From the IMG/VR virus record IMGVR_UViG_3300021387_000895, positions 27,302-91,301 of that record: a stretch of 64,000 nucleotides of DNA. One strand, written 5' to 3'. The notes under the pieces were generated by a model. The model ran no database searches. It was given only the letters and a program-made list of their open reading frames with translations, and had not been told where the DNA came from. Below, one piece after another: positions 7,229 through 57,146 of this stretch. The position numbers were made by a program, and so were the translations under genes. The first letter of the stretch is position 1, and every line of letters begins with the position of its first letter. Source of the stretch: a virus. Its lineage: Duplodnaviria; Heunggongvirae; Uroviricota; Caudoviricetes.

Positions 7229-7231
7229 GGC

Positions 7232-9480: not shown

Positions 9481-9483
9481 TTT

Positions 9484-16687: not shown

Positions 16688-16690
16688 CTC

Positions 16691-16730: not shown

Positions 16731-16774
16731 CTCGCGGGATAAACAAGTGTATTAATAGAAAGGAGTGGATTAGA

Positions 16775-16900
16775 ATGAAGGTACTTAATACTTTAGCTGC
16801 TATCGGTGTTATGACTCTGGTGTTCATTGGAGTAAAGACAGCAATGGCGGTGAACGAGATCGTCAACGGTCCGTTCCCTAAGGAGAAAAAGGGGTCTTAA
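16775..16900 (+). CDS. hypothetical 41-aa membrane peptide
   Basis: Early motif + AAAGGAG RBS; hydrophobic. Confidence 0.3.
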   Translation: MKVLNTLAAIGVMTLVFIGVKTAMAVNEIVNGPFPKEKKGS

Positions 16901-16965
16901 CAGGCCCCTAATTTTTTCGCGGCAAAAACAAGCGTCTTAATAGAAAGGAACAAGGAGGTATTCGT

Positions 16966-17151
16966 ATGAAAACTATAATTCGTATCGGAACTGCGTTGGT
17001 GATAGTAGCGGGGCTTGGCCTTCTGATCGACGGAATTGCCAATAATGTGGCAAATAAAGTCGTAGAGAAGCTGGCCACGCAGGATGCCAAACGTCCGAAA
17101 AGGATCGAACTCGATGACGACGAACCACTGGAACCAGACGAAATTGATTAA
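16966..17151 (+). CDS. hypothetical small membrane protein
   Basis: Early motif upstream. Confidence 0.4.
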   Translation: MKTIIRIGTALVIVAGLGLLIDGIANNVANKVVEKLATQDAKRPKRIELDDDEPLEPDEID

Positions 17152-17240
17152 CCGATCAATGGGCTCGTAGTGAAAACTACGGGCTTATTTTTTTTTCTCG
17201 CGTCGCAAACAAGCAGCTTAATAGAAAGGAGGGAAGTCAA

Positions 17241-17372
17241 ATGTTTTTAAGGTTTATCGCTACAATGACTGTTTACGGAATTCTTAAGACAAAAGATAAG
17301 ATGGAAACTCTTTGCGAGAAAATGGAAAAAGCAGTTAAGGATGAACTAAGCAAGAAAAAGGAAAAGACTTAA
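17241..17372 (+). CDS. hypothetical 43-aa peptide
   Basis: Early motif + AAAGGAGGG RBS. Confidence 0.3.
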   Translation: MFLRFIATMTVYGILKTKDKMETLCEKMEKAVKDELSKKKEKT

Positions 17373-17446
17373 CTATACGAGTGAGATGTCTTGGCAAAAC
17401 CACGGCATCTCGTTTTATCCATATTTCTTTTGCGGAGGACTCTAGA

Positions 17447-17725
17447 ATGTGTGTTTTAAGCATTACAGTAATAGGAAATGACTTATTCAAAATAGTAGCT
17501 GAAAAATTGGAGTTAGTAAAACTTAATCCGGTTAATCAAGTTAATTCCGGAATGTTTGGTAACTTAAAGATGTTAACCTATAGATTTGAACTTCAGGAAT
17601 CAGAAGTAATAGAAAAACGAAAAGAGCTTCTTAATGAACTGGCAAAAGATAATTTAAGATTACAGCCAATGTATGTCCATGGTGATTGGATGAGGATATT
17701 TGTCATGCGTCCAATAAAGACTTGA
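17447..17725 (+). CDS. hypothetical protein
   Basis: GGAGG RBS before internal ATG. Confidence 0.35.
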   Translation: MCVLSITVIGNDLFKIVAEKLELVKLNPVNQVNSGMFGNLKMLTYRFELQESEVIEKRKELLNELAKDNLRLQPMYVHGDWMRIFVMRPIKT

Positions 17726-17769
17726 TTTCGCGATCTAAACACGCTCCTTAGTAGAAAGGAGGATAGAAC

Positions 17770-18027
17770 ATGGACAAGAAAAAGACTGTTGTAGTCGATG
17801 GCCAGGAATACGTTTCTGTAGATCTTATGATCGAAGAAATGGTACGTGAGTGCGTTATCTGGACTAACGTCAATGACATTGAAGTTGGCGAAATTGAAAG
17901 TGATCGCATTGCCGCGTATCAGATTCTTCTTGAAGATATGCAGAAAGTCAGCTTTCCTGGACTTCAGAAGAAGTTTAAAGACATGTACATCAAGGAGAGA
18001 TTTATCGAAAGAACATTGGGGGTTTAA
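17770..18027 (+). CDS. hypothetical protein
   Basis: Early motif upstream. Confidence 0.4.
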   Translation: MDKKKTVVVDGQEYVSVDLMIEEMVRECVIWTNVNDIEVGEIESDRIAAYQILLEDMQKVSFPGLQKKFKDMYIKERFIERTLGV

Positions 18028-18079
18028 TCCCCCAATTTTGTTTTTTTTTTCTTATTTGATAGAATGGAGGTTAACGCTA

Positions 18080-18313
18080 GTGGCTACTACAATAACAGTC
18101 AATGATAATGGAACTATTGTTGGGTATCTTCCGGCTAGTGAGATCGCAAAAGAATGGGGAGTTGAGAACTCGACGATTAGAGTATGGATAAAACGAGGTA
18201 AATTAAAATCTCTTAAAATAGGGAACGAGCACTACATAAAGCAAAACACTGAGAAACCGGAACCTAAAAAGAGAGGTAAGAAGCCTCAAAATTATTACAG
18301 AAAACCGATTTAG
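18080..18313 (+). CDS. excisionase-like HTH DNA-binding protein (GTG start)
   Basis: IAKEWGVENSTIRVWIKRGKLKSLKIG is a typical Xis/HTH_17 helix-turn-helix. Confidence 0.45.
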   Translation: MATTITVNDNGTIVGYLPASEIAKEWGVENSTIRVWIKRGKLKSLKIGNEHYIKQNTEKPEPKKRGKKPQNYYRKPI

Positions 18314-18321
18314 GAGGAACT

Positions 18322-18513
18322 ATGAATAAGTATAAAGTGATATTTGAGATTCACGTTGACCGAAACCGTAAGGAATTCAAGGAAATAATCGTTGAAGCAG
18401 GAACTAAAAAGCTTGCGATGGTACGCGCTCTTTCAGAAATTAATAAAATTAAAGAATACGAAGGAATATTTAAAAATATTAAAGAAATTGAGGAGGTTTA
18501 TGATGGGCGATAA
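18322..18513 (+). CDS. hypothetical small protein
   Basis: GGAGG RBS. Confidence 0.4.
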   Translation: MNKYKVIFEIHVDRNRKEFKEIIVEAGTKKLAMVRALSEINKIKEYEGIFKNIKEIEEVYDGR

Positions 18514-18850
18514 AAACGATCTTTGCTTTGGTCAGTTGTTTTTAAAGGATGAAAAAGGTGATTATCAAAGAATTGCAGAAGGTGAGATTAAGACCGTCTC
18601 ATTAATTGATGATAATTCTATACACCCGAGTTTATTCGAACATACATTACATCCTTTTGATTGGCGAGGGGAAGTTACCGCTACGTTTACTCCTAAAACA
18701 AGCAAAAGAATGAATAAAAGGATAAAAGATCTTCTTAAATTTGGATGGATTAATGGCATTAGAACTGGAGCGCCTTTAAGGAAGAGGCTGTTACTCAAAA
18801 CGAATAGAGAAGTAAATAAGAAAAGGAGAGATATTCGTTATGGCAATTAA
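18500..18850 (+). CDS. hypothetical protein
   Basis: GAGGAGG RBS; overlaps previous stop. Confidence 0.4.
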   Translation: MMGDKNDLCFGQLFLKDEKGDYQRIAEGEIKTVSLIDDNSIHPSLFEHTLHPFDWRGEVTATFTPKTSKRMNKRIKDLLKFGWINGIRTGAPLRKRLLLKTNREVNKKRRDIRYGN

Positions 18851-19001
18851 GGAAGTTCGATTTGACGAGTATTGCAAGATTTGCAAATACTTCGAAAAGA
18901 GTGAAGCAGAAGATCCTTGCTATGACTGCCTTAATCAAGGATGGAATACTGATAGTCATAAGCCTATCATGTTTGAAGAAAAGGATGGTTCTAATGAGTA
19001 A
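18840..19001 (+). CDS. hypothetical 53-aa Cys-rich (CxxC..CxxC) peptide
   Basis: Overlapping start; zinc-ribbon-like cysteines. Confidence 0.3.
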   Translation: MAIKEVRFDEYCKICKYFEKSEAEDPCYDCLNQGWNTDSHKPIMFEEKDGSNE

Positions 19002-19224
19002 ACCTATTGCAGGATCTTCAAAATGTAAAGAGTTACTAGATAAATTCGAAGCTCTATTTCCATCCTATAAGGGGAAGATCGTTTATTATCAACCTTATGA
19101 TCGAGTTAGTTTAAGGCTGACAATTAATCACTTGACTTATATTTTCACATATGTGAACGAGAAAGTATGGGGATTTCAAACAGAAAAACACTTTATTGAC
19201 TCCTCACGATCGATTCGAAGATGA
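18994..19224 (+). CDS. hypothetical protein
   Basis: ATGAGTAA overlap with previous gene. Confidence 0.35.
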   Translation: MSKPIAGSSKCKELLDKFEALFPSYKGKIVYYQPYDRVSLRLTINHLTYIFTYVNEKVWGFQTEKHFIDSSRSIRR

Positions 19225-19299
19225 TTCGCGATTAAAACAAGCGATAAGATGAAGGATTGGAGGAGTGTAAAAACCGGCGGAGGCCCTATGGATAATCCC

Positions 19300-26870: not shown

Positions 26871-26925
26871 ATGAATTAAGGAGGCTGTTATATTTAGCAG
26901 TCTCCTAATTTTTAGGAGATTAATA

Positions 26926-27162
26926 ATGAATGCATTAATGAATCTAAGTCTTACTCAATTCACAGCGTGGATTATAATGATGGTTCTACTTATTATACCA
27001 TTAATCGCTTTTTTATTCACATGGATGACAAATATTTGGTTTACAAAAAAGACTGAGTATACTGTAGATATTTTAAAGAGAATCGTAAACGTTATTGATG
27101 CTGCTAAAAGAGAATGGTTTGATAAAAAGAAGGAGGAGAACAAGGATGAGCAGGAACAATAA
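26926..27162 (+). CDS. hypothetical small membrane protein
   Basis: One TM helix. Confidence 0.4.
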   Translation: MNALMNLSLTQFTAWIIMMVLLIIPLIAFLFTWMTNIWFTKKTEYTVDILKRIVNVIDAAKREWFDKKKEENKDEQEQ

Positions 27163-27367
27163 TCTTGTTTGCGATGTATGCGGACGAGAAATCAGGAGAA
27201 ACTATGAACATTATATTTTTCCTTTGAGGTTCTATCTTGTAGTGCCGTCGCAATACGTTTATATAAGGGAAAAAGACGGAAAGAAACCTCGTGACATGTG
27301 CTTAAAATGTTTTGAAGATTTCAAGAAATTTGTAAAGGAAAAGAGGGAGGAAGCACAAAATGAATAA
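27146..27367 (+). CDS. hypothetical zinc-ribbon protein (CDVCG...CLKCF)
   Basis: AAGGAGG RBS. Confidence 0.4.
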   Translation: MSRNNNLVCDVCGREIRRNYEHYIFPLRFYLVVPSQYVYIREKDGKKPRDMCLKCFEDFKKFVKEKREEAQNE

Positions 27368-28166
27368 CGAACAAACAAATCGACCTTCGGATTTTGTAGA
27401 ATGGCTTGGAAAAGATAATGTCATTGGTCAATCTATAATGGAGCGAAAGTATAGACGGCGTGGAGAAAGTTTTGATGAGTTCTTAAATCGAGTAAGCGGT
27501 GGAGACGAAGATCTTAAGGAACTCATTCTCGAAAAGAAATTCCTGCTTGGCGGTAGGACTATGGCGAATCGAGGACTCGATACTTCGGCGACATATTTTA
27601 ACTGCTATTCGATTGGGTTCGTTCCGGATGACTTTGGAGAGATCATGGATGTGGCTAAGAAGATCGGACTTACCTTCAAAGCTCAGGGAGGTCAGGGTCT
27701 TTCTTTAAGCAAGCTGAGACCTAAGGGAACACCCATTGGCAAGGATTATGCTTCCGATGGCATTATTCCTTTTATGAAACTTTATAACGAAGTAACTGCC
27801 GCTACAAGTCAGGGTGGGGCTCGTAAGGGAGCTTTAATAATGTCTCTAGATGCTCATCATAAGGAAGCTATGGACTTTATTAAGATAAAGTCAGAGCCAG
27901 GACTTATTGAAAAGGCTAATCTTTCGCTTGAGATTGATAATTCTTTTATGTCGGCTGCATGCAAAGAAGAGCCTCTATTCGAATTCCATGAATACTCAGG
28001 TCATAAAGTAGATTACAAGATCAATCCTAAAGATATTCTGCATGAAGTAGCAAAGGTGGCCTGGGATTGGGGTGAACCAGGAGTACTTTTTGTGGATAAA
28101 CTTCGCAACTATAATCTAATGCAATACGACGATGAGTATCAGATCGAAACAACGAATCCGTGCGGT
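27360..28166 (+). CDS. ribonucleotide reductase, exon 1 (class II NrdJ-like), ends NPCG
   Basis: N-terminal ...FDEFLNRVSGG... and NPCG active-site motif; reading frame hits a stop 2 codons later unless spliced. Confidence 0.7.
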
Positions 28167-28792
28167 CTCTGAATGATAAGTTGGCCCCACGTAAAACATC
28201 CCGAAAAATCGGTGAAAGCTAAACCAAAGAGCTTTGGCATGCTAATACCGAGTTTCTACTACATCACAGAGAAATGTAACGCATAGATAGTGAGCGCTAA
28301 GAGAGCAATAAACTATCCACGAGTTCGGGACTTTTGACACGTAAAAAAAGGAGAATCATGATAATTTATAAAGCAACGAATTTGATAAATGGGAAAGTAT
28401 ATATTGGTGCAACATCATTGAAACTTAATGCAAGAATCAAATACCATATAAAAGATGCTTATAGACCTGATAGACCTAAGGGACGTTTTCAAGAAGCGAT
28501 AATTAAATACGGAATCGATTCATTTGATTTCGAGCAAATTGAATGATGTTACAAATCATTATAAACCATTAACAGACTTTATAAATAGAAAATACGGAAT
28601 CTCTGATTTGAGAAGTTTATTCTTATGTCTAGATGTTAAAACCAAAAAAGAATTTGCTTTATCTTTAATTAAAATCGTGTCAGAAGAAAATATATGCTGA
28701 GCCGGTCTGAATCGACAGACGTATCGTTTTATAAACGTATGAGGGAAACCTCCGGAAATATAGGATAAAAAGCCTATATGATAACAACACTG
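28167..28792 (+). mobile_element. group I intron interrupting the RNR gene
   Basis: 5' exon ends in T, intron ends in G; splicing restores NPCG|EQPLPKHGACCLSSLNL; contains a homing-endonuclease ORF. Confidence 0.6.
28334..28546 (+). pseudogene. GIY-YIG homing endonuclease, truncated/decayed (70 aa)
   Basis: IYKATNLINGKVYIGAT GIY-YIG core; ORF stops right after the catalytic domain, no DNA-binding domain follows. Confidence 0.55.
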
Positions 28793-30253
28793 GAACAACC
28801 TTTACCGAAGCATGGTGCGTGCTGCTTATCTTCTCTTAATTTGTCAGAATTTGTTCGTTTCCCATACACAGAGAAAGCATTCTTCGCAAGTGGAGAGTTC
28901 GTTTTAGCTGTAGAGAAAGCGGTTAAGGCGCTTGATAAGTTAATTGATGAGAATTATAATCGGCATCCTTTAAAAGAACAACAAGAAATGAGTTTTAATT
29001 ATAGGAACATTGGCCTTGGTGTATTTGGTTATGGAACAATGCTCATGAAGCTTGGAATGCGATACGGTTCTGAGGAAGCTCTTAAGTTTACTGATGATAT
29101 TTTCGGTTTACTTTTTAGGGCAGCCGTTCTTGCCAGCAACGATCTCGCAAAAGAGTTCGGACCCTATCCTAAATACAAAGAGTGCGTCCTAGACAGTGAT
29201 ATTATTAAAGCTCATTTCAGACAAGACGAAATTGACGAACTGAAGCAATGCGGTCTTCGAAATTGCTCATTAATTTCGATTGCTCCAACCGGAACACTTG
29301 CGACATTGCTTGGCGAAACTAGTGGATGTGAACCAGAATTTGCTATGAAGTATACTCGTAGAACTGTTGGTATGACTGATGGTGATAACACTTACTATGA
29401 AGTCGATTGCAAGGCTGCAAAAGAGTATAAGGAAATTAATCATACCGATATTCTTCCTGATTATTTCGTCGCATCTGATGATATTCCTTGGATGGATCGA
29501 ATTCGCACTCAAGCGGTGATGCAAAAACATGTCGATACAGGTATTAGTTCTACAGTCAATCTGCCATATGAAACTAAAGTCGAAGAGATAGAAGACCTTT
29601 ATATTGAGGCGTGGAAACATGGTCTCAAGGGTATTACTGTTTTCCGAAAAGGATGCAAGCGAATGCCCATTCTTTCGATTGATAAGAAAGAAGGCGAGAT
29701 CAAAAAGATTGGTAAGATGAGAAAACTTACTACTGGTTGTGGATCTCTGCATCTATGTGCTATGTTCAATTCGGTTACGGGAGAGCTCATGGAGATATTC
29801 TTGAACAAGGGATCTTCCGGCGGATGCAATAACTTCATGATCGGTCTTAGTAGGCAGATCTCCCTTAATTGCCAGAACGGAGCAAAGATTGATGATATTC
29901 TTGATCAGCTTGCTTCATCTGGCGTGTGCCCATCTTATGCCGTAAGAACTGCAACAAAGCATGACACTTCTCCTGGTTCATCTTGTCCTGTTGCAGTAGG
30001 AAAGGCACTTAAGGAGATGTGGGAGGAGATGCAAAGTGAGCTTCGAACCGTGGCAAAAGATACTGCTAAAAACAATGATTCTCAAACCAGAACTAGTAAA
30101 ACAAAACACTATCAGGATTCCAAGAAAGATGGGGAAATCTCAAATGGAGTTGAAGCATATGATGGAAAGAAGTGTCCAGTTTGCGGAAAAGCAATCGACC
30201 ACATCGGAGGATGTGACCAATGTACCAACTGCGGATGGAGTAAATGCGAGTGA
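28793..30253 (+). CDS. ribonucleotide reductase, exon 2 (C-terminal zinc-ribbon CPVCG..CDQCTNCG)
   Basis: EQPLPKHGACCLSSLNL active-site loop and further RNR barrel motifs. Confidence 0.7.
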   Translation, partial: EQPLPKHGACCLSSLNLSEFVRFPYTEKAFFASGEFVLAVEKAVKALDKLIDENYNRHPLKEQQEMSFNYRNIGLGVFGYGTMLMKLGMRYGSEEALKFTDDIFGLLFRAAVLASNDLAKEFGPYPKYKECVLDSDIIKAHFRQDEIDELKQCGLRNCSLISIAPTGTLATLLGETSGCEPEFAMKYTRRTVGMTDGDNTYYEVDCKAAKEYKEINHTDILPDYFVASDDIPWMDRIRTQAVMQKHVDTGISSTVNLPYETKVEEIEDLYIEAWKHGLKGITVFRKGCKRMPILSIDKKEGEIKKIGKMRKLTTGCGSLHLCAMFNSVTGELMEIFLNKGSSGGCNNFMIGLSRQISLNCQNGAKIDDILDQLASSGVCPSYAVRTATKHDTSPGSSCPVAVGKALKEMWEEMQSELRTVAKDTAKNNDSQTRTSKTKHYQDSKKDGEISNGVEAYDGKKCPVCGKAIDHIGGCDQCTNCGWSKCE

Positions 30254-42036: not shown

Positions 42037-42280
42037 CATTGAGAAGAAGCATGGGGTCATAGGCTATTATACAAGAATGGCTAAAGATGTTTTGGCGGAT
42101 TCTACTATTCTCTCAGATCATTATGTAAGAATAGGAAAAACAGAAGAAGAATATGGACGTGTCGATAATGCTGAGTGGTTATGTGAGATTCATATCAACT
42201 CTATTGAGCAAGCTCTTGATTATGCCGCGATTTTTCAAAAGATTGCTAATAGAATGAGAGAAGAAAAAGGAGAACAATAA
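42023..42280 (+). CDS. hypothetical protein
   Basis: Overlapping start. Confidence 0.4.
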   Translation: MLKIDIEKKHGVIGYYTRMAKDVLADSTILSDHYVRIGKTEEEYGRVDNAEWLCEIHINSIEQALDYAAIFQKIANRMREEKGEQ

Positions 42281-43368
42281 TGGATAAGCAAGTCAAAGTA
42301 GTTATCGGAGCAAATTATGGGGACGAGTGTAAAGGTCTCGTCTCCTATTGCTTAGCTAAAGAGGCCAACGCACAAGGAAGAAAGATATTAACGGTTCTTT
42401 TTAATGGCGGCGCACAAAGAGCTCATACCGCTGATGGCAAGATATTCCACTGTACTGGAACCGGAGCTGCCGTTGGATCTGATACTTACTATGATCAGAA
42501 ATTCATGGTAGATCCGGTAGCTCTTTGGCTTGATAAGGCTAAGGTATACATCAATCCTTATTGCAGAGTTGTCCTTCCGTGTGATATAACGAATAATCAG
42601 CAAAGAGAACTTCGTTTAAGAAATAGCAGCTCTGGACATGGAACCTGTGGAATGGGGATATTTGAGGCATGTAAAAGGAGTAAGATCGAAAAGTATTGCG
42701 TATATGCTAAAGAGCTATTTATGGGATGGCGGCAACTCTATGATAAGCTCATAGAAATTGAAAAGGAGTATGGGTATCCTAGAGATCTTGTATACAACAA
42801 TGATAATTTCATGAGAGCTGTAAAGTATGTAACGGACAAGTGCTCTATTTGTGATCTCGATGAACTGAAATACAAATATGATACGATTATATTTGAAGGT
42901 GGTCAGGGTCTAATGCTCGACCAGGATAATACTGGTGACTTTCCTTATCTTACTCCATCTTCAACCGGTGTTCAAAACATTACTCAACGATTATTGGATC
43001 TCGAAGTTAATCCAGAATTATATTATGTGTCCAGATCATATTTAACAAGGCATGGTAAAGGTCCTTTGCCGAGGGAATGCGAAAAGAGTGATATTAATCC
43101 AGAAATCGTTGACGAAACAAATAAACCTAATCCATGGCAAGAAGAGATACGGTATGGATTTTTGGATAACGAAGCCATGCTTAAAAGGGTGTGGAAAAAT
43201 GCATGCCCGATAGGTGGCGCTAAGATAAATCTTGTCTACACTCATCTTAACTACACTAACGATAAACTTGCAGTGGGAAGAAACAGCTTTGAAACGATCA
43301 AGAAACCTAGCTTTGTGAATCATGTTTATGGTTCGGATAGTAAAGATGCTATGGGAGTGATATTGTAG
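42280..43368 (+). CDS. adenylosuccinate synthetase homolog, PurZ-like (candidate 2-aminoadenine/dZ-monophosphate synthetase)
   Basis: VVIGANYGDECKG (cf. PurA GDEGKGK), GGAQRAHT, IIFEGGQGLMLDQDNTGDFPYLTPSST, YLTRHGKGPLP align to PurA motifs; 362 aa, i.e. truncated relative to cellular PurA as phage PurZ is. Confidence 0.6.
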   Translation: MDKQVKVVIGANYGDECKGLVSYCLAKEANAQGRKILTVLFNGGAQRAHTADGKIFHCTGTGAAVGSDTYYDQKFMVDPVALWLDKAKVYINPYCRVVLPCDITNNQQRELRLRNSSSGHGTCGMGIFEACKRSKIEKYCVYAKELFMGWRQLYDKLIEIEKEYGYPRDLVYNNDNFMRAVKYVTDKCSICDLDELKYKYDTIIFEGGQGLMLDQDNTGDFPYLTPSSTGVQNITQRLLDLEVNPELYYVSRSYLTRHGKGPLPRECEKSDINPEIVDETNKPNPWQEEIRYGFLDNEAMLKRVWKNACPIGGAKINLVYTHLNYTNDKLAVGRNSFETIKKPSFVNHVYGSDSKDAMGVIL

Positions 43369-45721: not shown

Positions 45722-45960
45722 AAAAGAAGACTGATGATTATGAGACTGCATGGCTTTGCAATGGCAAAGATCCAAAGTGCGCTGGTAAGGTAGGATGCTA
45801 TTACAATCTATATAACGGAAGAAGAGGCGCATGCTCGCATACGACCGATAATCGATATGCGCTTCATAAGAGATTAGATCCTAAGAAGAATCCTGAGATG
45901 TTTGACAAATTCAAACTTCCGGATCAGACAAGATATTATGAAAGGGAGAAACCAAAATGA
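45718..45960 (+). CDS. hypothetical Cys-rich protein (GTG start)
   Basis: Overlaps previous stop. Confidence 0.35.
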   Translation: MKKKTDDYETAWLCNGKDPKCAGKVGCYYNLYNGRRGACSHTTDNRYALHKRLDPKKNPEMFDKFKLPDQTRYYEREKPK

Positions 45961-46496
45961 GTGAAAAGTATAATGAATACTTGAAGAATCATATAGAAGG
46001 CGTGAAGAAAGCCTACATATGGCTGGAAGACCACTTTGAAGATATTCCCAGAAACATGGGAACTCACGCGATTTGGATGATCGCCGATCACGATGCTTCG
46101 AAGTATGGACCGGAAGAGTATGATGCCTATGACGAATACTTTTATGGTAAAAACAAGTCATACAAGGTCGTAAGTGACTTTAACTACGCCTGGCTTCATC
46201 ATATTCATCACAATCCTCATCACTGGCAGTATTGGGTGCTCAAGCATGACGACGAGCCTGAAGAGGCGCTTGAGATGCCATACTGGTATGTAATTGAGAT
46301 GATCTGCGATTGGTGGAGCTTCTCATTTAATAAGGGCAATCTTATGGAGATATTTGATTGGTACGAAAAGCATAAGGACATGGTGCTCCATGAGAAGACC
46401 CGGAAACTTGTTGAAGATATTCTTGATAGGATTAAGAAAGAATTAGAAAAAGAAAAGGAGGAGAGTGAAGAAAATGAAGTACCCGATAAGCTTTGA
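45957..46496 (+). CDS. HD-domain phosphohydrolase (DatZ-like dNTP triphosphohydrolase candidate)
   Basis: H...HD...H...H...D pattern: THAIWMIADHDASKY, LHHIHHNPHH, ICDWW; 179 aa. Confidence 0.5.
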   Translation: MSEKYNEYLKNHIEGVKKAYIWLEDHFEDIPRNMGTHAIWMIADHDASKYGPEEYDAYDEYFYGKNKSYKVVSDFNYAWLHHIHHNPHHWQYWVLKHDDEPEEALEMPYWYVIEMICDWWSFSFNKGNLMEIFDWYEKHKDMVLHEKTRKLVEDILDRIKKELEKEKEESEENEVPDKL

Positions 46497-47785: not shown

Positions 47786-48448
47786 ATGAGTACCAATGAG
47801 ATATGTAAGTATCAAATTAAGGACATGTTCAAACCATATATGATCACCAAAAAGGAACAAAAAGAATTGGTTGACCGATATTTTAATGGAGAATACGGTC
47901 TTCGTGATAGAATTATTGCAAGCTATATACCTTTGGTGATCGGCGTAATTAACAAGAAATTCATGTATGTAGATGAGCGATACGCTGACGATTGCTTTTC
48001 TCTGGGATGTATAGGACTTGTAAAAGCTTTCGATACCTTTAAGAACGATAAAGGAGCAAGCTTTTCTACGTATGCCTATACTTGCATCTGGAATTCCATC
48101 GCGCACTTCTTTAGGAAGATCAAAAGGACTCCGATTACGGTGTCCCTTGATGCCCCTTTAGCTTCTGAAGATTGTAGCGAAGAACTATGCGTAAAAGATA
48201 TTATCGAGGATGATCACGAAGAATCTCAACCAGAAAATGTTTTATTTGATTCTTGTTTCATAAGCGAAGTCGAATCTAAACTCAATCTTCTTAAAGAAGT
48301 AGAACGTGAAGTAATTAAAATCAGATATTTCAATGAGAAATGCTATAACCAAGAAGAAACAGCCAGAATTTTGGAGATGTCACAAGCAGGAGTATCAAGA
48401 GCAGAAAAAAGAGGCATAACTAAGATTAAGGAGGCTTTGTTTTCATGA
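47786..48448 (+). CDS. phage-encoded sigma-70-family RNA polymerase sigma factor (group 3, SigF/SigG-like size)
   Basis: Region 2 (YIPLVIGVINKKF...DDCFSLGCIGLVKAFDTF...STYAYTCIWNSIAHFFRK) and region 4 HTH (REVIKIRYFNEKCYNQEETARILEMSQAGVSRAEKRG). Confidence 0.75.
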   Translation: MSTNEICKYQIKDMFKPYMITKKEQKELVDRYFNGEYGLRDRIIASYIPLVIGVINKKFMYVDERYADDCFSLGCIGLVKAFDTFKNDKGASFSTYAYTCIWNSIAHFFRKIKRTPITVSLDAPLASEDCSEELCVKDIIEDDHEESQPENVLFDSCFISEVESKLNLLKEVEREVIKIRYFNEKCYNQEETARILEMSQAGVSRAEKRGITKIKEALFS

Positions 48449-49047
48449 ATACGATTGATGTTAGTGAGATGCTTGATATTATTGAGAAAGAACTTCATAT
48501 AAGGGAAAAATTACTTAGGCTTAAAGAATTATATTCTAAAGGAGCACAGAATACTAACGCCTGGAGTCTTGAGTGTGATCTTCGAGATAGAATCTGGTAT
48601 TGCAAAACATGTTACGAAGAGAAAGTCTACGAAGAAATCAATAAGATGTATGAGGAAATATTTCCTTTAAGGTGTCCTAAGGAAGGTTCTTTTATTGGGT
48701 ATAAGAAGGCTCTTATATTTCCAACTCCATATTCAACTGCAGAAGCTCTGGTTACTCTCGAAATACCAGAGGATGCTAAAAGGTCCAGTGCATTTGAAGG
48801 GAAATGCAGGTGCAGCAAAGCGAAGGTGCTGTCAATCGAAAATATTCACGTTGAAGGACTTTCTCATGACTATGCATATTCGGCATATGTGGATAAGCAT
48901 AGACTATGCTTCGATAAACAAGAGCCCGATTACTACGTAGGCGATATGGTTTATCCAGATTCCTTCGATGAATTCAGATGGAATGAATGTTCCAACGGTA
49001 TTCATTTCTTCATGACAAAAGAAGAAGCTTTGGAGTATAAGATTTGA
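48445..49047 (+). CDS. paralog 1 of tandem triplicated family (CPKEGSF..RSSAF..KCRCSKA..NECSNGIHFFMTKEEA)
   Basis: Shares >40% identical blocks with the next two genes. Confidence 0.5.
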   Translation: MNTIDVSEMLDIIEKELHIREKLLRLKELYSKGAQNTNAWSLECDLRDRIWYCKTCYEEKVYEEINKMYEEIFPLRCPKEGSFIGYKKALIFPTPYSTAEALVTLEIPEDAKRSSAFEGKCRCSKAKVLSIENIHVEGLSHDYAYSAYVDKHRLCFDKQEPDYYVGDMVYPDSFDEFRWNECSNGIHFFMTKEEALEYKI

Positions 49048-49072
49048 GTGATATTCTGAAAGGAGTGAGTAT

Positions 49073-49777
49073 ATGGAGTTCTCGATCAGTGATATCTTTG
49101 TGGAGAATCCAGGGTCCATACATTGTAGGTATAAGGATGAGAAGGACATATTCAAGTACGTGCAGTCAAAGGTAGAAGTCATTAGAAAGTTTGTAAATGA
49201 GCTTAATGAAGAGTATATTGACATTGTATATGCAATATACCCCATAGAATTTGCTGCTAACCAATTGCTAAAATATGCTAATGTGCTCAGTTGGGAACAC
49301 TTCGAGTATGTACTTCAAAGCTTTGAAGAGATTTTCCCGATGCGATGCCCGAAGGAAGGCTCGTTTGTCGCTTACAAATCTGCCGAGGTATGGGAGGTAG
49401 GAGGAAAAATACCTTTAGATGTTTTGGTCACGTTGGAAGTACCAGAAGATGCCAAAAGGTCGAGCGCTTTCACTAACAAATGCCGATGCAGTAAGGCGAG
49501 AGTGCTGTCCATTAATGGTTTGAGATACCCTAACACGAGAAGTAAGTACGATCAAGCTTATTCGAACTATCATTTACATCTAAAGTATAAGAAAGGAGAA
49601 ATGATATATCCTGACAAGTTTGACGAGAATAGATGGAATGAATGCTCAAATGGTATTCATTTCTTTATGACAAAAGAAGAGGCGATACAATACGCCAATC
49701 GACGGAAACCATTCACAAGACAACTAATTAAAGCACAATCTGAAATCGATAATGCCAGAGAGGAGAACAAGCAATAA
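49073..49777 (+). CDS. paralog 2 of tandem triplicated family
   Basis: FPMRCPKEGSFVAYK...EDAKRSSAFTNKCRCSKARVLSI...NRWNECSNGIHFFMTKEEA. Confidence 0.5.
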   Translation: MEFSISDIFVENPGSIHCRYKDEKDIFKYVQSKVEVIRKFVNELNEEYIDIVYAIYPIEFAANQLLKYANVLSWEHFEYVLQSFEEIFPMRCPKEGSFVAYKSAEVWEVGGKIPLDVLVTLEVPEDAKRSSAFTNKCRCSKARVLSINGLRYPNTRSKYDQAYSNYHLHLKYKKGEMIYPDKFDENRWNECSNGIHFFMTKEEAIQYANRRKPFTRQLIKAQSEIDNAREENKQ

Positions 49778-50451
49778 TGAATACAAATGATATCTGGGTC
49801 GATAAACATGAAAAGATCGAAGATGATGAGCTTGAGAATAAGGTCTTCGATAGATATATGGCGTGGTTTAAAGATAAAATAATTCTCGTCAAGTATATGC
49901 GAGCAAAACCTCATGGACATGGTACATATGGGGCATTTGTTCACGAACAAGAAATAGCCGACAACATCGATAATGCAAAAAGCATGTTTACCAAAGAGCA
50001 CTATGATATACTGAAAGAGATGCTTGAAAAAGAGTTTCCTTTGAAGTGCCCTGAGAAAGGATCATTTGTTGGATACAAGAAGTGTGTAGTGCTTGATAAG
50101 TCTGAGCAATGCGGATTTTTTGGGTCAGATTGTGATTTAAATGCCAACCATGTTCTCGTTACTCTTGAGATCCCAAGCACTTCCAGAAGATCCAGCGCAT
50201 TTGGAAATAAGTGCCGATGTGAATCAGCAAAGGTGATTGATATTATCGGCATTAACGCTGATCCATATGATAGAACAATCATTCATTATGAATCGGCTAT
50301 TTCCGGATTCGTTCCGCATGGTCCTCAACTTCTCCATTATATTAAGAATGGAATTGTAGTTGCTGACTCCTTTGATGATAATCGCTGGCGGGAGTGCTCT
50401 CATGGAATACACTTCTTTATGGAACCTGAAGAAGCAATAAACTACTGGTAA
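49777..50451 (+). CDS. paralog 3 of tandem triplicated family
   Basis: FPLKCPEKGSFVGYKK...RRSSAFGNKCRCESAKV...NRWRECSHGIHFFMEPEEA. Confidence 0.5.
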   Translation: MNTNDIWVDKHEKIEDDELENKVFDRYMAWFKDKIILVKYMRAKPHGHGTYGAFVHEQEIADNIDNAKSMFTKEHYDILKEMLEKEFPLKCPEKGSFVGYKKCVVLDKSEQCGFFGSDCDLNANHVLVTLEIPSTSRRSSAFGNKCRCESAKVIDIIGINADPYDRTIIHYESAISGFVPHGPQLLHYIKNGIVVADSFDDNRWRECSHGIHFFMEPEEAINYW

Positions 50452-51475: not shown

Positions 51476-52048
51476 ATGGTGATGTACGCAGTCAATTACG
51501 GATTTGATATTGATCAGGATTACTTTGCTTGGCTTTGTGAAATGGTGCACATCGATCAGATGGATAGGAGCTATATGAACTTAGCAAAGGATCTGCATCA
51601 CCGGAAGTTTTACTCGTTGGTATCCCACGATGAGAACCGAGCGAGCGATGGACAGGAATTAAGAGAGTATTATATGAGAGAGATCAACTATCCAAAGTAT
51701 TTGGAGCTTGAAGGAGAATGCTCTGTACTTGAGATGCTGATCGGCCTTGCGAGAAGGATGGATTTTGAGACCAACAACCCGTATGATATTAACGGTCCAA
51801 AGGACAAAACGACTTATTGGTTCTGGGAAATGATTGATAATTTGGGGCTTATGAAGTTCTCAGATGACGTCTATTATCAAAACGGTGGAGCCAATAAGGT
51901 TGATAAGATCCTCGATAGATTCTTGAACAGGAGATATTCCAAGGATGGAACTGGCGGTCTGTTTCCGCTTGATAATCCAAGGCGGGATCAACGAGAAGTT
52001 GAGATTTGGTATCAGATGAACAGCTATCTTGCGGAGAGAGAAATGTGA
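51476..52048 (+). CDS. hypothetical protein
   Basis: Early motif variant (CTCGCGCTGAAAACACG) upstream; GGAGGTG RBS. Confidence 0.45.
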   Translation: MVMYAVNYGFDIDQDYFAWLCEMVHIDQMDRSYMNLAKDLHHRKFYSLVSHDENRASDGQELREYYMREINYPKYLELEGECSVLEMLIGLARRMDFETNNPYDINGPKDKTTYWFWEMIDNLGLMKFSDDVYYQNGGANKVDKILDRFLNRRYSKDGTGGLFPLDNPRRDQREVEIWYQMNSYLAEREM

Positions 52049-52353: not shown

Positions 52354-52548
52354 ATGGAAGCGTCTAATATCGAGTTTTTGAAGGTTCAAATCAAGAGAGA
52401 AATGACCGAACTTTTGAGGGTAAAAGAGCAACTAAAAATGTCAAATGAGGCCGGCAGTTTACCAGGAGATAAGGCCGATTGGTGCGTTGAAAAATTGTCG
52501 GATGTGGTGAACGATTTAGGGCATATTTTAGACGTATTTTTAGGGTAA
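52354..52548 (+). CDS. hypothetical small protein
   Basis: Coupled start. Confidence 0.35.
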   Translation: MEASNIEFLKVQIKREMTELLRVKEQLKMSNEAGSLPGDKADWCVEKLSDVVNDLGHILDVFLG

Positions 52549-52925
52549 AAACGCTGTTACGTTTTTTACGTTTTGTGACGTTTTTGTGACAAAAATTTTT
52601 GAAGAATTTGGAATTTTTCGAAGCAAATGATATACTTTTTCATTACATTTGGAAATTTTGTGACAAAAAAGTGTCACAATGTTACGTTTTTTGTGCAAAA
52701 CTGAAACCTGAAAACCCTTGATTTTATTGGGTTTGTGACGTTTGTTACGTTTTTTTGGCACTTTTTTAATTAGCTAAAGAAAAAAATTTTTTATAAAGTA
52801 ATAAAAAAGCCTAAATTTTTGTCACAAACGTAACAAGACCTATTTTTGCGAAGAAAAATGTGATGCTGAAAATGAGGTCAAAAATGGTGCTGAAAGAGTG
52901 ATATTTTTGAGGAGGAAACTGGCAA
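52549..52925. repeat. AT-rich iteron/palindrome-dense non-coding region (putative origin of replication or replicase control region)
   Basis: Multiple copies of GTTACGTTTTT, GTGACGTTT and TGTGACA / TGTCACA in direct and inverted orientation, including the palindrome TTGTGACAAAAAAGTGTCACAA; immediately upstream of the replicase gene. Confidence 0.55.
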
Positions 52926-55900
52926 ATGGACTTCTATAAAATCAGGGAAAGGAGTCGCAAAGGTGGGGTTGAAATTTACCCTGATTTTCGAGTCGATGAT
53001 CTCGAGGATCTCCTTGTTCGAGGCGGTAAGTTTTATGCGGTGTGGGATGACGACAAAGGTCTGTGGTCACAGAATCCATTAACAGCACGAAGGATAGTCG
53101 ATAAGGATCTTTGGGAGTATGCTGATAAATTCAGAGACAAGTTTCACTTTGATGGTCCGATCAATGTAATGACCATGGAATCGGATTCGAGTGGTTCATG
53201 GAATCGCTTCGTTGCATATTTGAAACGCTCTCCTGATTCCAATGTTCAGCTCGACAACAAGCTTACGTTTCTGAACAGTAAAGTGACGAAGAAGGACTAT
53301 ATTTCGAAGCGGCTTGACTATGCGCTTGAAGAGGGTGACTATTCAGCATGGGATAAAATTGTAGGGACTTTGTACGATGAGAAAGAGAGGGAAAAGATTG
53401 AATGGTCTATTGGTGCAATTATATCTGGAGACAGCAAGACCATTCAGAAGTTCTGTGTGTTCTATGGTGAACCCGGAACTGGTAAGGGAACTATTCTGGA
53501 AATCGTACAGAGATTGTTCAAAGGATATTTTACCGTATTTGATGCGAAAGCTCTTGCTTCTGCTTCCAATCAGTTCTCGACAGAGATGTTTGCTTCAAAT
53601 CCTTTGGTTGCTATGCAGACCGAGGGTGACCTTTCCAGAATCGAAGATAATACAAAGCTGAACGCGATCGTATCTCACGAGCCTATTGTGATAAATGAGA
53701 AGAACAAATCACAGTATATGGGAAAGGCGAATTGCTTCTTGATGCTGGCTACAAATACTCCTGTCAAGATAACCGATGCGAGAAGTGGTATCATTCGAAG
53801 GCTGATTGATATTAATCCGAGCGGAAGGACGATCCCTTCGAATGAGTATGAGGCACTCATGAGTCAGATTGATTTTCAGCTCGGGGGTATTGCATGGCAT
53901 TGCCTTCAGGTGTATCGAGAACTCGGCAAGAATTACTATAAGACTTACAAGCCTACACAGATGATTATGAAGACCGACGTCTTTTATAATTTTGTAGAGG
54001 CTAATCTTGAGACATTTGAAGGGCAGGATGGGATATCTCTCAAACAAGCTTATGCGATGTATAAGGATTACTGTGATGAGGCTCTTGTAGAATACAAGTT
54101 GCCTAGACATCGTTTCAGGGAGGAGCTTAGAGCTTATTATGATCGGTTTGATGAGGTAACGAGAGATCCTGATGGGAAGCAGATCAGGAGCTGGTTCTCG
54201 GGATTTAAGAAAGATAAATTTGAACCGCCCGTTTTAAAGAAAACTCAAAAACCATTGGCGATGGTTCTCGAGTGTACTGAAAGTCTACTGGATGATATTT
54301 TGGCTGATTGTAAGGCTCAGTATGCGAACGAGGATGAAAAGCCAAGTATTGCGTGGAGCAAGGTTGAGACGAGACTTAAGGATCTCGATACGACCAGGCT
54401 CCATTATATTTTGCCCAAGAATCCGGAATGGAAGTACAAGTTGATCATGATCGACTTTGATATTAAGAATGCCGATGGTGAAAAAGACATGCTTCTTAAT
54501 CTGGAAGCTGCAAGTAAATGGACAAAGACTTATGCTGAGTTTTCAAAAGGTGGCGGAGGAATACACCTGATATATTGGTACGACGGGGATATTGACAAGT
54601 TGTCTTCTGTGTATGCTCCAGGAATTGAAGTGAAAGTGTTTAGAGGCAATTCGTCAATGCGAAGGAGATTGTCGAAGTGCAATAACATTCCAATTGCCGT
54701 TCTGACTTCAGGACTTCCTATGAAGGAGGAAAAGATGATTGACGTAAAAGCTGTTAAATCTCAGAAGAAGCTGGTTGAAATTGTTAAGGACTGTTTGAAT
54801 AAAAAGCATCATGGAGCTACAAAGCCTGAGATTGATTTTTTAGTAAAGATATTGGATGATGCATACAACAGCGGATTGGTATATGACATAAGCGATTTGG
54901 AGCATGATATTCTCATGTTCGCTATCAATTCGAGTCATAACGCCCTTTATTGCAAGAATCAAGTCAAGAAGATGAAGTTCAAGTCTGATCAGCCGATCGA
55001 AGAGGTTTCTCAGAGAAAAGATCCTGTTACAGATGAACTTGTGTTCTTTGATATTGAGGTATTCCCCAATCTGTTGCTGGTGAATTGGAAAATTGCCGGA
55101 GATGGTAATCCTGTAATGAGAATGATAAATCCGTCTCCACAGGATATTGAGAATCTGTTTAAGTTTAAGCTGGTTGGATTCAATTGCAGAAAGTACGACA
55201 ATCATATTTTATACGGAAGATACCTTGGTCTCAGTGTTGAGGAATTATACGATCTGTCACAAAGGATAATTGTTGAACAGGCTCGTGATGCTTTTTATCC
55301 TGAAGCATACAACATCAGTTATACAGATGTTTATGATTTTTCAAGTAAAAAACAGAGCCTTAAGAAATTTGAGATCGAACTTGGCATTCATCATCAGGAG
55401 CTTGGTCTACCATGGGATAAACCTGTTCCGGAAGAGATGTGGAACCAGGTTGCAGAGTACTGTGACAACGATGTTATAGCGACTGAGGCTACTTTTAATG
55501 CCCGTAAAGCTGATTTCACAGCAAGACAAATTCTGGCGGCTGTTGCTGGTCTTACGGTCAATGATACTACAAATACACTTACAACAAGAATTATATTTGG
55601 TGGTGAACGTAAACCTCAGCATGAGTTTAACTATCGCGATATGGGGGATGAATCCGATGCCCATATGAGTACGGATGATATTTTAACCGATAAGCGATGG
55701 ACGGTATTTGACAGTAAAGGTCGTCCAATCTTTCCTGGATATCGGTATGAGTTTGGTAAATCGACTTACCGAGGGGAAGAAGTTGGTGAGGGAGGCTATG
55801 TGTATGCAGAGCCAGGAATACATTGCCATGTCGCTCTTCTTGATATTGCATCAATGCATCCATCATCCATTGTCGCTGAAGATCTGTTCGGACCTACATA

Positions 55901-57146
55901 CACTCAGCGGTTCCATGATATTCTGAATGCTCGAATTGCTATAAAGCATGGCGATTTTGATACAGCAAGGAAACTGCTGGATGGTAAATTGGCCCCGTTC
56001 CTCGATGATGAGAAAGCTGCAAAGGATCTTGCTCAGGCTCTGAAGATAGCTATCAATTCAGTTTACGGATTGACAAGCGCCAGGTTCGAGAATCCGTTCA
56101 GGGATAAGAGAAATAAGGATAATATTGTTGCAAAGCGTGGAGCTCTGTTTATGGTTAATCTTAAGCATGAAGTTCAGGCTCGCGGATTTACTGTTGCACA
56201 TATTAAGACTGACTCAATCAAGATACCCAATGCTACACCTGATATTATTCAGTTCGTTATGGAATACGGAAAGCTTTACGGATACAATTTCGAGCACGAA
56301 GCTACGTATGATCGTATGTGCCTTGTTAATGACGCAGTTTATATTGCAAGGTTTGCCACTTCTGAATGGTGTGAGAATGAGTATGGATATTCTCCAAAAG
56401 AGAATTATGAGGATGGCGGACAATGGACTGCTACCGGCGCTCAATTTCAGCAGCCATACGTGTTCAAGACTTTGTTCTCGGGCGATGAATTGATGTTTAG
56501 CGATTTCTGCGAGACAAAGAGCGTTACCGGAGGAGCTATCTATTTGGACATGAATGAATCGCTTCCTGATATTTCAGACACTGAGGCAACACTTGAGAAG
56601 GCTATGAAGAAAAGTGGCATCACATTGGATGATATTCTAAGATGTGAAGCCGATCCTTATGCGATTGAAGGTATGAATTCTGATCAAGGCAGCGTGATGC
56701 ACTATTTACTAGAGCTTAGAAAGGATATTTCAGCATGCCATGATTATCACTTTGTCGGAAGGGCTGGATTATTTACACCAATAAAGCCTGGAGCCGGAGG
56801 CGGTGTAATGTACCGAGAAAAGAACGGAAAGTATTACGCTGTCGGTGGAACAAAGGGCTATAGGTGGCTTGAAGCCGAGGTGGTGATGTCGCTTCACAAA
56901 GAGAATGATATTGACAAAAGGTATCATGAGGATCTTGCAAACGAGGCAATCAAAGCTATCTCTGAGTATGGAGATTTTGAAGCATTCGTTTCTTCTGAGC
57001 CTTATATTTCATATGATGATAGTAAACCTCCGTTTGATCTGGTTCCATGTGGAGATGGCAAATACAACACATGCATGGAATGTCCAGCCTGTAAAGGAGA
57101 TCAATGCCTTAATGGGTATAGCTTATCTACTTATGTGAATGGGTGA
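52926..57146 (+). CDS. fused replicase: P-loop NTPase + AEP primase-polymerase domain + family B DNA polymerase with 3'-5' exonuclease
   Basis: Walker A GEPGTGKGT (aa ~183); AEP motifs MIDFDIKNADGEKD and SKGGGGIHLIYWY; Exo I FFDIEVFPN, Exo II FNCRKYDNHIL, Exo III YCDNDV; Pol A LDIASMHPSSIVA, Pol B KIAINSVYG, Pol C HIKTDSI. Confidence 0.75.
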   Translation: MDFYKIRERSRKGGVEIYPDFRVDDLEDLLVRGGKFYAVWDDDKGLWSQNPLTARRIVDKDLWEYADKFRDKFHFDGPINVMTMESDSSGSWNRFVAYLKRSPDSNVQLDNKLTFLNSKVTKKDYISKRLDYALEEGDYSAWDKIVGTLYDEKEREKIEWSIGAIISGDSKTIQKFCVFYGEPGTGKGTILEIVQRLFKGYFTVFDAKALASASNQFSTEMFASNPLVAMQTEGDLSRIEDNTKLNAIVSHEPIVINEKNKSQYMGKANCFLMLATNTPVKITDARSGIIRRLIDINPSGRTIPSNEYEALMSQIDFQLGGIAWHCLQVYRELGKNYYKTYKPTQMIMKTDVFYNFVEANLETFEGQDGISLKQAYAMYKDYCDEALVEYKLPRHRFREELRAYYDRFDEVTRDPDGKQIRSWFSGFKKDKFEPPVLKKTQKPLAMVLECTESLLDDILADCKAQYANEDEKPSIAWSKVETRLKDLDTTRLHYILPKNPEWKYKLIMIDFDIKNADGEKDMLLNLEAASKWTKTYAEFSKGGGGIHLIYWYDGDIDKLSSVYAPGIEVKVFRGNSSMRRRLSKCNNIPIAVLTSGLPMKEEKMIDVKAVKSQKKLVEIVKDCLNKKHHGATKPEIDFLVKILDDAYNSGLVYDISDLEHDILMFAINSSHNALYCKNQVKKMKFKSDQPIEEVSQRKDPVTDELVFFDIEVFPNLLLVNWKIAGDGNPVMRMINPSPQDIENLFKFKLVGFNCRKYDNHILYGRYLGLSVEELYDLSQRIIVEQARDAFYPEAYNISYTDVYDFSSKKQSLKKFEIELGIHHQELGLPWDKPVPEEMWNQVAEYCDNDVIATEATFNARKADFTARQILAAVAGLTVNDTTNTLTTRIIFGGERKPQHEFNYRDMGDESDAHMSTDDILTDKRWTVFDSKGRPIFPGYRYEFGKSTYRGEEVGEGGYVYAEPGIHCHVALLDIASMHPSSIVAEDLFGPTYTQRFHDILNARIAIKHGDFDTARKLLDGKLAPFLDDEKAAKDLAQALKIAINSVYGLTSARFENPFRDKRNKDNIVAKRGALFMVNLKHEVQARGFTVAHIKTDSIKIPNATPDIIQFVMEYGKLYGYNFEHEATYDRMCLVNDAVYIARFATSEWCENEYGYSPKENYEDGGQWTATGAQFQQPYVFKTLFSGDELMFSDFCETKSVTGGAIYLDMNESLPDISDTEATLEKAMKKSGITLDDILRCEADPYAIEGMNSDQGSVMHYLLELRKDISACHDYHFVGRAGLFTPIKPGAGGGVMYREKNGKYYAVGGTKGYRWLEAEVVMSLHKENDIDKRYHEDLANEAIKAISEYGDFEAFVSSEPYISYDDSKPPFDLVPCGDGKYNTCMECPACKGDQCLNGYSLSTYVNG

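Follow-up and report, generated by a model that had tools for sequence, protein, structure and literature searches.

A putative iteron-type replication origin beside the replicase gene of a tailed phage, with counterparts in its relatives

Introduction

Does the long non-coding gap in front of the replication gene of a tailed phage mark the place where its DNA synthesis begins? We address this question for a stretch of 64,000 nucleotides (nt) from the virus record IMGVR_UViG_3300021387_000895 (IMG/VR; Caudoviricetes; positions 27,302 to 91,301), referred to here as the window, in which a gap of 377 bp (52549-52925) precedes the gene for a helicase-primase-polymerase, hereafter the replicase. 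A preliminary description, made without database searches, had noted recurring hexamers, a palindrome and a symmetric pair of elements in this gap and had proposed it as a putative origin. Our findings make it probable that the region is the replication origin of the phage, of the iteron type found in Staphylococcus aureus pathogenicity islands (SaPIs) and served by a self-loading superfamily 3 (SF3) helicase-initiator. We favor this reading because the boxes are clustered, their architecture is conserved, the element is single-copy, the duplex is of low stability and the replicase is homologous to a studied initiator-helicase. From these features we infer a protein that binds the boxes, a place of melting and a start of replication within the region. 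A search of the literature found no origin described for the phage group that includes Faecalibacterium phage FP_oengus, Lactococcus phage 1706 and many actinobacteriophages.

A cluster of short boxes in front of the replicase gene

The repeat unit of the region is a box of 7-10 nt, consisting of T-GTKAC-R and a run of T or A. The core motif TGTKACR has 26 matches in the window, compared with 22.8 expected from shuffled sequence. Ten of these matches fall within the 281 bp from 52555 to 52835, where about 0.1 would be expected, and the other 16 are scattered. Three degenerate boxes accompany the ten exact ones (TTTTACG at 52565, TTGTGCAA at 52690 and TGGCAC at 52755). The longer form TGT(G/T)ACGTTT has five copies in the window, all of them in the region, which holds one inverted copy in addition. 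Counted as hexamers, the region contains GTTACG three times (and once inverted), GTGACG twice and GTGACA twice (and twice inverted), and it ranks first among 300-nt intervals of the whole 64 kb for repeated hexamers. The recurrence of GTTACG and GTGAC(A) in direct and inverted orientation, as first described, is therefore borne out by these counts, although the hexamer is only the recurring core of the 7-10-nt box and not the repeat unit itself.

No other stretch of 180 nt or more between 39 and 63 kb lacks a plus-strand open reading frame (ORF) of at least 50 amino acids, in agreement with the earlier characterization of the region as the sole long non-coding stretch of the replication module. 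Its G+C content, 0.29 against about 0.39 for the window, is the lowest among eight stretches defined in this way, and the very AT-rich composition had likewise been recognized correctly. Two overlapping ORFs (52540-52761 on the minus strand and 52599-52721 on the plus strand) were judged spurious, as they have neither a ribosome-binding site nor conservation. The parts of the region and the gene that follows it are listed below.

52555..52591, plus strand: left array of four direct boxes, TGTTACG 52555, TTTTACG 52565 (degenerate), TGTGACG 52574 and TGTGACA 52585
52606..52659, plus strand: second short repeat, ATTTGGAA(A)TTTT, in two copies (52606 and 52647) that bracket the sigma-70-like site
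52608-52636: sigma-70-like site, TTGGAA, 17 nt, TATACT, with an upstream TG
52658-52679: palindrome TTGTGACA-AAAAAG-TGTCACAA with perfect 8-nt arms, formed by boxes at 52659 (plus) and 52672 (minus)
52658..52697: segment in which the palindrome is directly followed by the direct box TGTTACG 52680 and the degenerate box TTGTGCAA 52690
52711..52734: conserved hairpin AAACCC-ttgattttatt-GGGTTT, preceded by a run of A and followed by a run of T
52734..52761, plus strand: inner direct boxes TGTGACG 52734 and TGTTACG 52743 and degenerate TGGCAC 52755, the left flank of the AT-rich core
52750..52819: AT-rich spacer of 70 nt, 84% A+T, containing the semi-conserved gCTAaAGAAAAAAAtttttTATAaA
52820..52835, minus strand: two inverted boxes (starts 52820 and 52829), read on the reverse strand as TGTTACG-TT-TGTGACA, the right flank of the core
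52836..52925, plus strand: replicase leader, with a short duplication (A)ATG(T/G)GATGCTGAAA in two copies and the ribosome-binding site AGGAGG at 52910-52915
52926..57146, plus strand: replicase of 1406 amino acids, matching phrog_4210 from end to end

The boxes of the left array follow each other at start-to-start distances of 10, 9 and 11 nt, each with a run of T or A behind it. The palindrome, which had been called near-perfect, is real and has perfect arms. Further to the right, the two inverted boxes face the inner direct boxes across the AT-rich core. The symmetric pair reported earlier, GTGACGTTTGTTACG (52735-52749) and, on the reverse strand, GTTACGTTTGTGACA (52820-52835), corresponds to these flanks and is real, but since the order of its box variants is swapped, it falls short of a strict inverted repeat. 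As single-stranded DNA, the region folds better than shuffled sequence (z = -3.3).

The hairpin has a 6-bp stem, an 11-nt loop and a folding energy of -6.7 kcal/mol as RNA; it is terminator-like and weak, and was not called by the terminator scan, which only the version in the related locus L020 passes (related loci are numbered with the prefix L). The segment holding the second repeat and the sigma-70-like site could be an origin-associated promoter or the site of a second factor. In the leader, inspection by eye revealed a weak likeness to a motif that the phage carries before many of its genes (TTTTTGCG..AAAAA..GAAAATGA), which fails the regular expression for that motif. Within the region, a search for DnaA boxes with up to one mismatch returned none.

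The AT-rich core is set apart by its stability and its uniqueness. The least stable 40-bp duplex stretch of the window lies inside the spacer at 52750-52819, and the spacer ranks third among loci of the window for instability over 60 bp. Based on its composition and position, we propose the spacer as a candidate DNA-unwinding element. The core sequence is single-copy in the window; dispersed copies had been sought there with the idea that the core might be a promoter for a phage RNA polymerase, and none were found.

Conservation of the module across related phages

A nucleotide search of a phage collection with the window yielded no close relative. At the protein level, the nearest cultured relatives, with 35-51% identity, are Faecalibacterium phage FP_oengus, many phages of Arthrobacter, Gordonia and Streptomyces, and the Lactococcus phages 1706, P092 and P118, while metagenomic relatives form a graded series downwards from 80% identity. 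The group is large: at least 513 gut and rumen metagenomic relatives were confirmed by tblastn in one collection, and protein databases hold about 8,000 homologues. For comparison, we fetched loci with replicase homologues at 64-80% identity and added viral contigs at 52% identity and two broad scans.

The order of the module recurs in over 25 metagenomic relatives, from gut, rumen and other sources, and is kept among relatives with replicases that are 50-80% identical. Each of the closer relatives has an AT-rich gap of 270-550 nt before the replicase in which the parts follow in the same order: left direct boxes; a lineage-specific second repeat; the palindrome of box, five or six A residues and inverted box, with a direct box; an inverted box; the hairpin, preceded by an A run and followed by a T run; one or two direct boxes; the AT-rich spacer; one or two inverted boxes; and 10-90 nt leading to the ribosome-binding site. 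The arrangement of box, A5/6 and inverted box together with a direct box, for instance, recurs in L013, L016, L017, L018, L019, L020, L057, L092 and L100.

What changes between lineages is the box itself. The types found are GTGACA, GTTACG, GTTACA, GTTACC, CGTCAC, GTACCG, TTGTCA, GGCGTC, TACCAT, GTGCAA, CTGCCCAG/CTGCCCAC and TGGCCA; the module of each locus shows strong enrichment of its own box over the remainder of the locus, and the left-hand direct boxes of each relative are of its own type. In 15 of the 19 tabulated loci, the convergent inner boxes stand 59-89 nt apart around a spacer with an A+T fraction of 0.68-0.91; in the remaining four, the simple search pattern either overlooked the inverted box or settled on a different gap. 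Hairpins are present in most relatives despite sequence change, with covariation uncountable since the ungapped alignment used for consensus folding could not register hairpins of different shapes.

Individual loci display rearrangements of these parts. In L015 (2743-2775) the module hairpin is exactly reverse-complemented, and in L100 (1720-1880) an insertion of about 90 nt with its own hairpin interrupts it; these changes suggest recombination across the inverted arms. In L105 (9400-9700), GTGACAC and GTGCAA boxes are interleaved within one module, which may represent an intermediate stage in a shift of box specificity. A single degenerate box of the GTGCAA-like kind also occurs in the window, at 52690.

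The position of the module is less constant than its design. The gap that abuts the replicase, a feature to which the preliminary description had attached weight, is present here but is specific to certain lineages: it measures 40 nt or less in about 60 of 76 metagenomic relatives and likewise in six inspected cases (FP_oengus, Gordonia phage Petito, Lactococcus phages 1706 and P092, the oral metagenomic contig89 and Bifidobacterium phage BitterVaud1). In L053, L028 and L105, the module lies one small gene upstream of the replicase; in L110 and L146 it lies about 7 kb downstream; and in FP_oengus (L102, MG711463) it is found at 26,890-27,090, 10 kb downstream of the replicase, with TGGCCA/CCCACTT boxes, an AT-rich core and a final box. 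In that phage, an 870-nt stretch annotated as non-coding (26,890-27,600) holds both the module and an unannotated 124-amino-acid ORF with CxxC pairs (27,216-27,590). The polarity of the module relative to the genes is constant in all cases, and the genes 3' of it are non-homologous across lineages. Such a fixed internal design amid changing neighbor genes is what would be expected of an origin, and not of an operator belonging to one particular gene.

The replicase as candidate initiator

Within residues 1-470, the replicase has an N-terminal domain, followed by a D5-like SF3 helicase core (DUF5906, residues 179-284) and a winged helix (369-427); further on it carries a family-B DNA polymerase, with a Cys-rich tail at the end of the protein. 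The segment between helicase and polymerase carries DxD and GxH motifs, read by eye from the alignment, and may be a primase; a search with residues 431-700 gave no PDB sequence match.

Both sequence and predicted fold connect the N-terminal part to an initiator that has been studied experimentally. With phmmer, residues ~153-409 align with SaPI5 PriRep5 (7ola_A 494-750; E 3.5e-7), the alignment reaching the C-terminal domain of PriRep5. The AlphaFold model of residues 1-470 (pLDDT 86.5) has its winged helix at 369-427, and a Foldseek search with this model returned 7OLA chains as the top PDB match (E 3.7e-13, TM 0.56-0.61, ~415-435 columns), followed by D5-family primase-helicases of African swine fever virus, NrS-1 and poxviruses. 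By analogy with that protein, we infer that the boxes are recognized by the winged helix of the replicase.

An association between box type and protein sequence points in the same direction. The wing residue aligned with Q419 is Q in 18 of 18 tabulated lineages with GT(G/T)AC or GTGCA boxes and in none of eight lineages with other boxes (Fisher, 6.4e-7, a test that ignores phylogeny); L107, which was checked afterwards, also has Q at this position. The association is suggestive of box recognition by the wing. Other candidates for the box binder, encoded by small upstream ORFs, were set aside. A protein of 83 amino acids has the look of a membrane protein and is without relatives in the fetched loci, a 64-amino-acid protein occurs only in the closest relatives, and the L001 group has the module with neither small ORF.

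Proposed mechanism and implications

If the region is an origin of this type, the winged-helix domain of the 1406-amino-acid replicase would recognize the 7-10-nt boxes, and proteins bound to the direct boxes at 52734-52749 and the inverted boxes at 52820-52835 would assemble face to face across the 70-nt spacer. The facing assemblies would melt the AT-rich spacer and load two helicase rings, after which the same polypeptide would prime and extend the DNA. The left half, with its four phased boxes, palindrome and hairpin, might provide extra sites for cooperative binding or a second assembly site, and it may link initiation with transcription or shield the origin against it. The hairpin, for its part, may stop read-through from the upstream operon or extrude as a cruciform.

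A bolder proposal is that module and replicase form a self-contained two-component replicon, in which one polypeptide recognizes the origin and carries out melting, unwinding, priming and polymerization, and in which specificity is reprogrammed through the box and a few wing residues (419 and its neighbors). We advance this tentatively, as a possible but rather doubtful extension. If it were true, co-infecting gut phages of the family would be replication-orthogonal, the module would be movable between two genomic sites, and the family would constitute a natural series of matched origin/initiator pairs.

The practical value of the locus has three aspects. A defined origin together with a single-chain helicase-primase-polymerase could serve as a compact replicon for genetic tools in gut Firmicutes that are hard to manipulate. 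The origin module could also be used as an annotation marker for the genomes of a very large and mostly uncultured phage family. Finally, the box/initiator pairs offer a natural set for studying how winged-helix initiators change their specificity.

Weighing the alternative explanations

A number of observations weigh against an origin with the replicase as its initiator. The polarity of the module is constant and its end always lies just before a ribosome-binding site; the terminator-like hairpin and the -10-like TATAAA/TATATA elements of the spacer fit a succession of terminator, promoter and operator. GC skew, suggested earlier as a check, is monotonic and has no inflection, although this measure is uninformative with all genes on one strand. 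In phage 1706, the first 50 kb were scanned for hexamers, and no comparable cluster was detected. Should the DNA of the phage contain 2-aminoadenine, a possibility raised by a PurZ-like gene in the window, the AT-rich spacer would not be unusually easy to melt. As for the protein, lineages that differ in their boxes have almost the same putative recognition helix, FREELxxY, which is awkward if this helix reads the box. The box of L017 still contains GTGAC on its other strand, which softens one contrast in the comparison of wing residues, and the tree underlying that comparison, in which phylogeny was ignored, is star-like.

Several of these observations would be expected if the region served transcription control only. 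Transcription of the upstream operon would then end at the hairpin and start anew from a promoter in the spacer or from the TTGGAA-17-TATACT site, and the boxes would be operators, either for a phage regulator or for autoregulation by the replicase. Such an arrangement accounts for the A and T runs around the hairpin, for the distance of 10-90 nt to the ribosome-binding site in every case, for the sigma-70-like site at 52608-52636 and for the semi-conserved TATAAA/TATATA, and the boxes do resemble a -35 hexamer (GTGACA versus TTGACA). However, sigma-70-like matches in the region are near chance (4 against 2.8 expected) and take no consistent position in four relatives, whereas the abundant promoter-like motif of the phage itself, TTCGCG-N-AAACA-N-TA(A/G)T(A/G), with about 33 plus-strand copies before genes, is absent from the region and comes nearest at 51356. 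An array of 10-13 boxes over 290 bp is far above typical operators, the element is single-copy, the genes after it are non-homologous across lineages, and most relatives express the replicase without any upstream gap. FP_oengus, moreover, has a separate and better sigma-70-like site (TTGAAC-17-TAATAT, read by eye) downstream of the module and before the 124-amino-acid ORF. The preliminary description had itself named sites for promoters and operators alone as the competing explanation. The near-chance promoter matches and the non-homologous following genes weaken it, and we regard it as unlikely. Transcription control might also coexist with origin function, and transcription-activated origins occur in other phages.

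Centromere-like and pac sites, too, can carry short repeats arrayed in either direction along with bent A/T tracts, so that the region could belong to another multimeric protein, as a site of partition, packaging (pac/cos) or recombination; an integrase encoded at 5839-6840, and with it a possible lysogenic state, would suit such a role. No partition ATPase or ParB-type protein was seen nearby, the 64-kb window has no terminase gene, and the region lies inside the replication module. Such sites do not feature convergent boxes around an AT-rich spacer, and the neighboring protein with a matching DNA-binding module is an initiator-helicase. We therefore consider a site of this kind highly improbable. 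The order of promoter-like site, palindrome hairpin and terminator-like hairpin would likewise accommodate a small non-coding RNA of about 85 nt, running from the promoter at 52608-52636 to the hairpin at 52711-52734 and acting as a regulator or a replication primer, and the folding of the region beyond that of shuffled sequence agrees with this. Nevertheless, Rfam covariance models run on the region gave only chance-level miRNA matches far below gathering scores, the promoter is not conserved in relatives, and the terminator-like hairpin is weak. The hairpin arms are boxes that recur as direct repeats in the module, which marks them as sites in duplex DNA and not as RNA structure; a small RNA is accordingly hardly to be expected here. 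Taken together, the architecture, single copy number and cross-lineage conservation of the region, along with the PriRep5-like part of the replicase, support the origin that had been put forward, as a prediction from sequence and structural models.

Genomic context

The tailed-phage genome to which the window belongs has a G+C content of about 39% and all its genes on the plus strand. The window has a tail spike and an integrase near its start, followed by small early genes with three tRNAs, then by nucleotide-metabolism genes, a sigma factor and the replication module. Features outside the region are listed below.

5839-6840, same strand as all other genes: tyrosine integrase, adjoining the tRNA-containing early region
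7042-7121, 8113-8188 and 9484-9570: three tRNA genes of the early region, Ile-TAT, Leu-TAA and a third, with an odd anticodon loop, left unassigned by ARAGORN
27360-28172 and 28778-30253: ORFs matching consecutive parts of phrog_84, a split ribonucleotide-reductase large subunit
42280-43368: adenylosuccinate-synthetase homologue of 362 amino acids (phrog_1211, annotated PurZ-type, E 8e-38; Pfam PF00709)
45957-46496: DUF5662 protein
47786-48448: phage-encoded sigma-70-family factor (regions 2 and 4)
48445-50451: three tandem paralogues with DUF5758, with a 90-nt stretch of 78% identity linking 48939 and 49594
51476-52048: protein of 190 amino acids (phrog_4678), just upstream of the replicase

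A temperate lifestyle, which is also annotated for FP_oengus, is probable for the phage. Given the PurZ-like gene, adenine may be replaced by 2-aminoadenine in the phage DNA. The gap of about 600 nt between the two ribonucleotide-reductase ORFs could be an intron, an intein-free insertion or a homing element. The 190-amino-acid protein is encoded in the same place, close upstream of the replicase, in 89 related loci and has no Pfam or PDB match; we consider it a conserved partner and a candidate accessory replication protein. A scan of the whole window for RNA genes retrieved the three tRNAs only.

A sigma factor is also encoded near the replicase in L017 and L020. The promoter-like motif of the phage has the fuller form TTTTCGCG-N-TT-N-AAACA-N5-8-TTA(A/G)TAGA or TATAATGA and stands just before ribosome-binding sites, with copies, all on the plus strand, at 7187-19252, 26222, 30577, 33718, 36794, 38855, 47024, 51348, 58736 and 61882. 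In Lactococcus phage 1706 (L103 24,700-25,380), a similar motif ending in CTATAGTAGAAAGG precedes early genes. The motif may be a family-specific promoter for a phage sigma factor or a phage RNA polymerase. At many copies, the ribosome-binding site pairs with a preceding CTCCTT, and the copies at 26230, 30585, 33718, 36794 and 51356 have a hairpin and a T run no more than about 10 nt behind them; these hairpin-linked copies could give rise to short transcripts or act as attenuators. The copy at 51356 precedes the conserved gene for the 190-amino-acid protein. Families of near-identical strong terminator hairpins, such as GGCTCGTAGT-aaaa-ACTACGGGCTTATTTTTT, occur at 12732, 15525, 16690 and 17153 and also at 7503 and 59308. 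They are much stronger than the hairpin inside 52549-52925.

Comparison with known replication origins

Iterons around an AT-rich core, acted upon by a self-loading SF3 helicase, constitute a mechanism that is already established in SaPIs and in eukaryotic DNA viruses. Several other systems share part of this design. In theta plasmids and phage lambda, Rep or O binds iterons of 17-22 bp, mostly in direct tandem and usually together with DnaA boxes and a separately loaded DnaB. The common ground with the region studied here is that initiator sites lie beside an AT-rich unwinding region and that specificity shifts between relatives; in contrast, the boxes here measure 7-10 nt, occur in both orientations and are without a DnaA box, and the helicase is part of the initiator.

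Among phages of dairy bacteria, Streptococcus thermophilus phage Sfi21 is said to have a non-coding origin by the gene for a D5-like primase, defined through a phenotype of phage-encoded resistance and active in vivo. As reported, it spans about 300 bp of AT-rich non-coding DNA, contains both direct and inverted repeats and is located beside a D5-like replication gene in a siphophage of Firmicutes, and in these respects it resembles the present region. The repeats and proteins of the two are unrelated in sequence, and the activity of the Sfi21 element in vivo contrasts with the predicted function of the present one.

At the origins of polyomaviruses and papillomaviruses, inverted short elements by an AT tract and a palindrome direct two SF3 helicase hexamers, those of large T antigen or E1. 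Unlike the replicase, these proteins have their origin-binding domains N-terminal to the helicase and in another fold; their hosts are eukaryotic, and their elements have no sequence relation to the boxes described here. The alpha protein of phage P4 is a D5-family primase-helicase with a C-terminal winged helix that binds octamer repeats in both orientations. P4 requires a second cis region, crr, which lies several kilobases away and has the same repeats. The parallel consists in a D5-family helicase combined with short repeats in both orientations, whereas no second cluster of boxes was found in the 64 kb covered, out of a source contig roughly 30 kb longer; the boxes also differ in sequence, and P4 alpha is without a polymerase.

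The closest correspondence is with the SaPIs and, more generally, the phage-inducible chromosomal islands (PICIs), represented by SaPI1, SaPIbov1 and the PriRep5 system of SaPI5 (7OLA). SaPI Reps are self-loading helicases whose C-terminal winged helix recognizes penta- or hexanucleotide iterons, and the PriRep5 origin has been defined experimentally (PMC9371898). SaPI origins hold 6-12 iterons adjoining rep around an AT-rich center, with at least two iterons per side in opposite directions as a conserved feature (PMC9371898). In SaPIs the origin lies immediately downstream of the gene, while here it lies upstream or, in relatives, kilobases away. Furthermore, the initiator here is fused to a family-B DNA polymerase, and probably to a primase, in one chain of 1406 amino acids, and the module has an additional conserved left array, palindrome, hairpin and semi-conserved spacer sequence. 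The element here is a tailed phage of about 60-95 kb and not a satellite. The SaPI scheme includes sequence-specific binding of the repeats by the initiator and melting that needs no ATP; here binding and melting are predicted from architecture and homology. Against these differences stands a close agreement in plan. Short repeats are clustered within a few hundred bp (ten exact and three degenerate in 281 bp), in the window next to the initiator gene, and the right half of the region matches exactly the arrangement of an AT-rich center flanked by at least two opposed repeats. The initiators are D5-like SF3 helicases with a winged helix after the ATPase, PriRep5 being the best match of replicase residues 1-470 in both sequence and fold. 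As in the SaPIs, finally, the repeat sequence differs among related elements.

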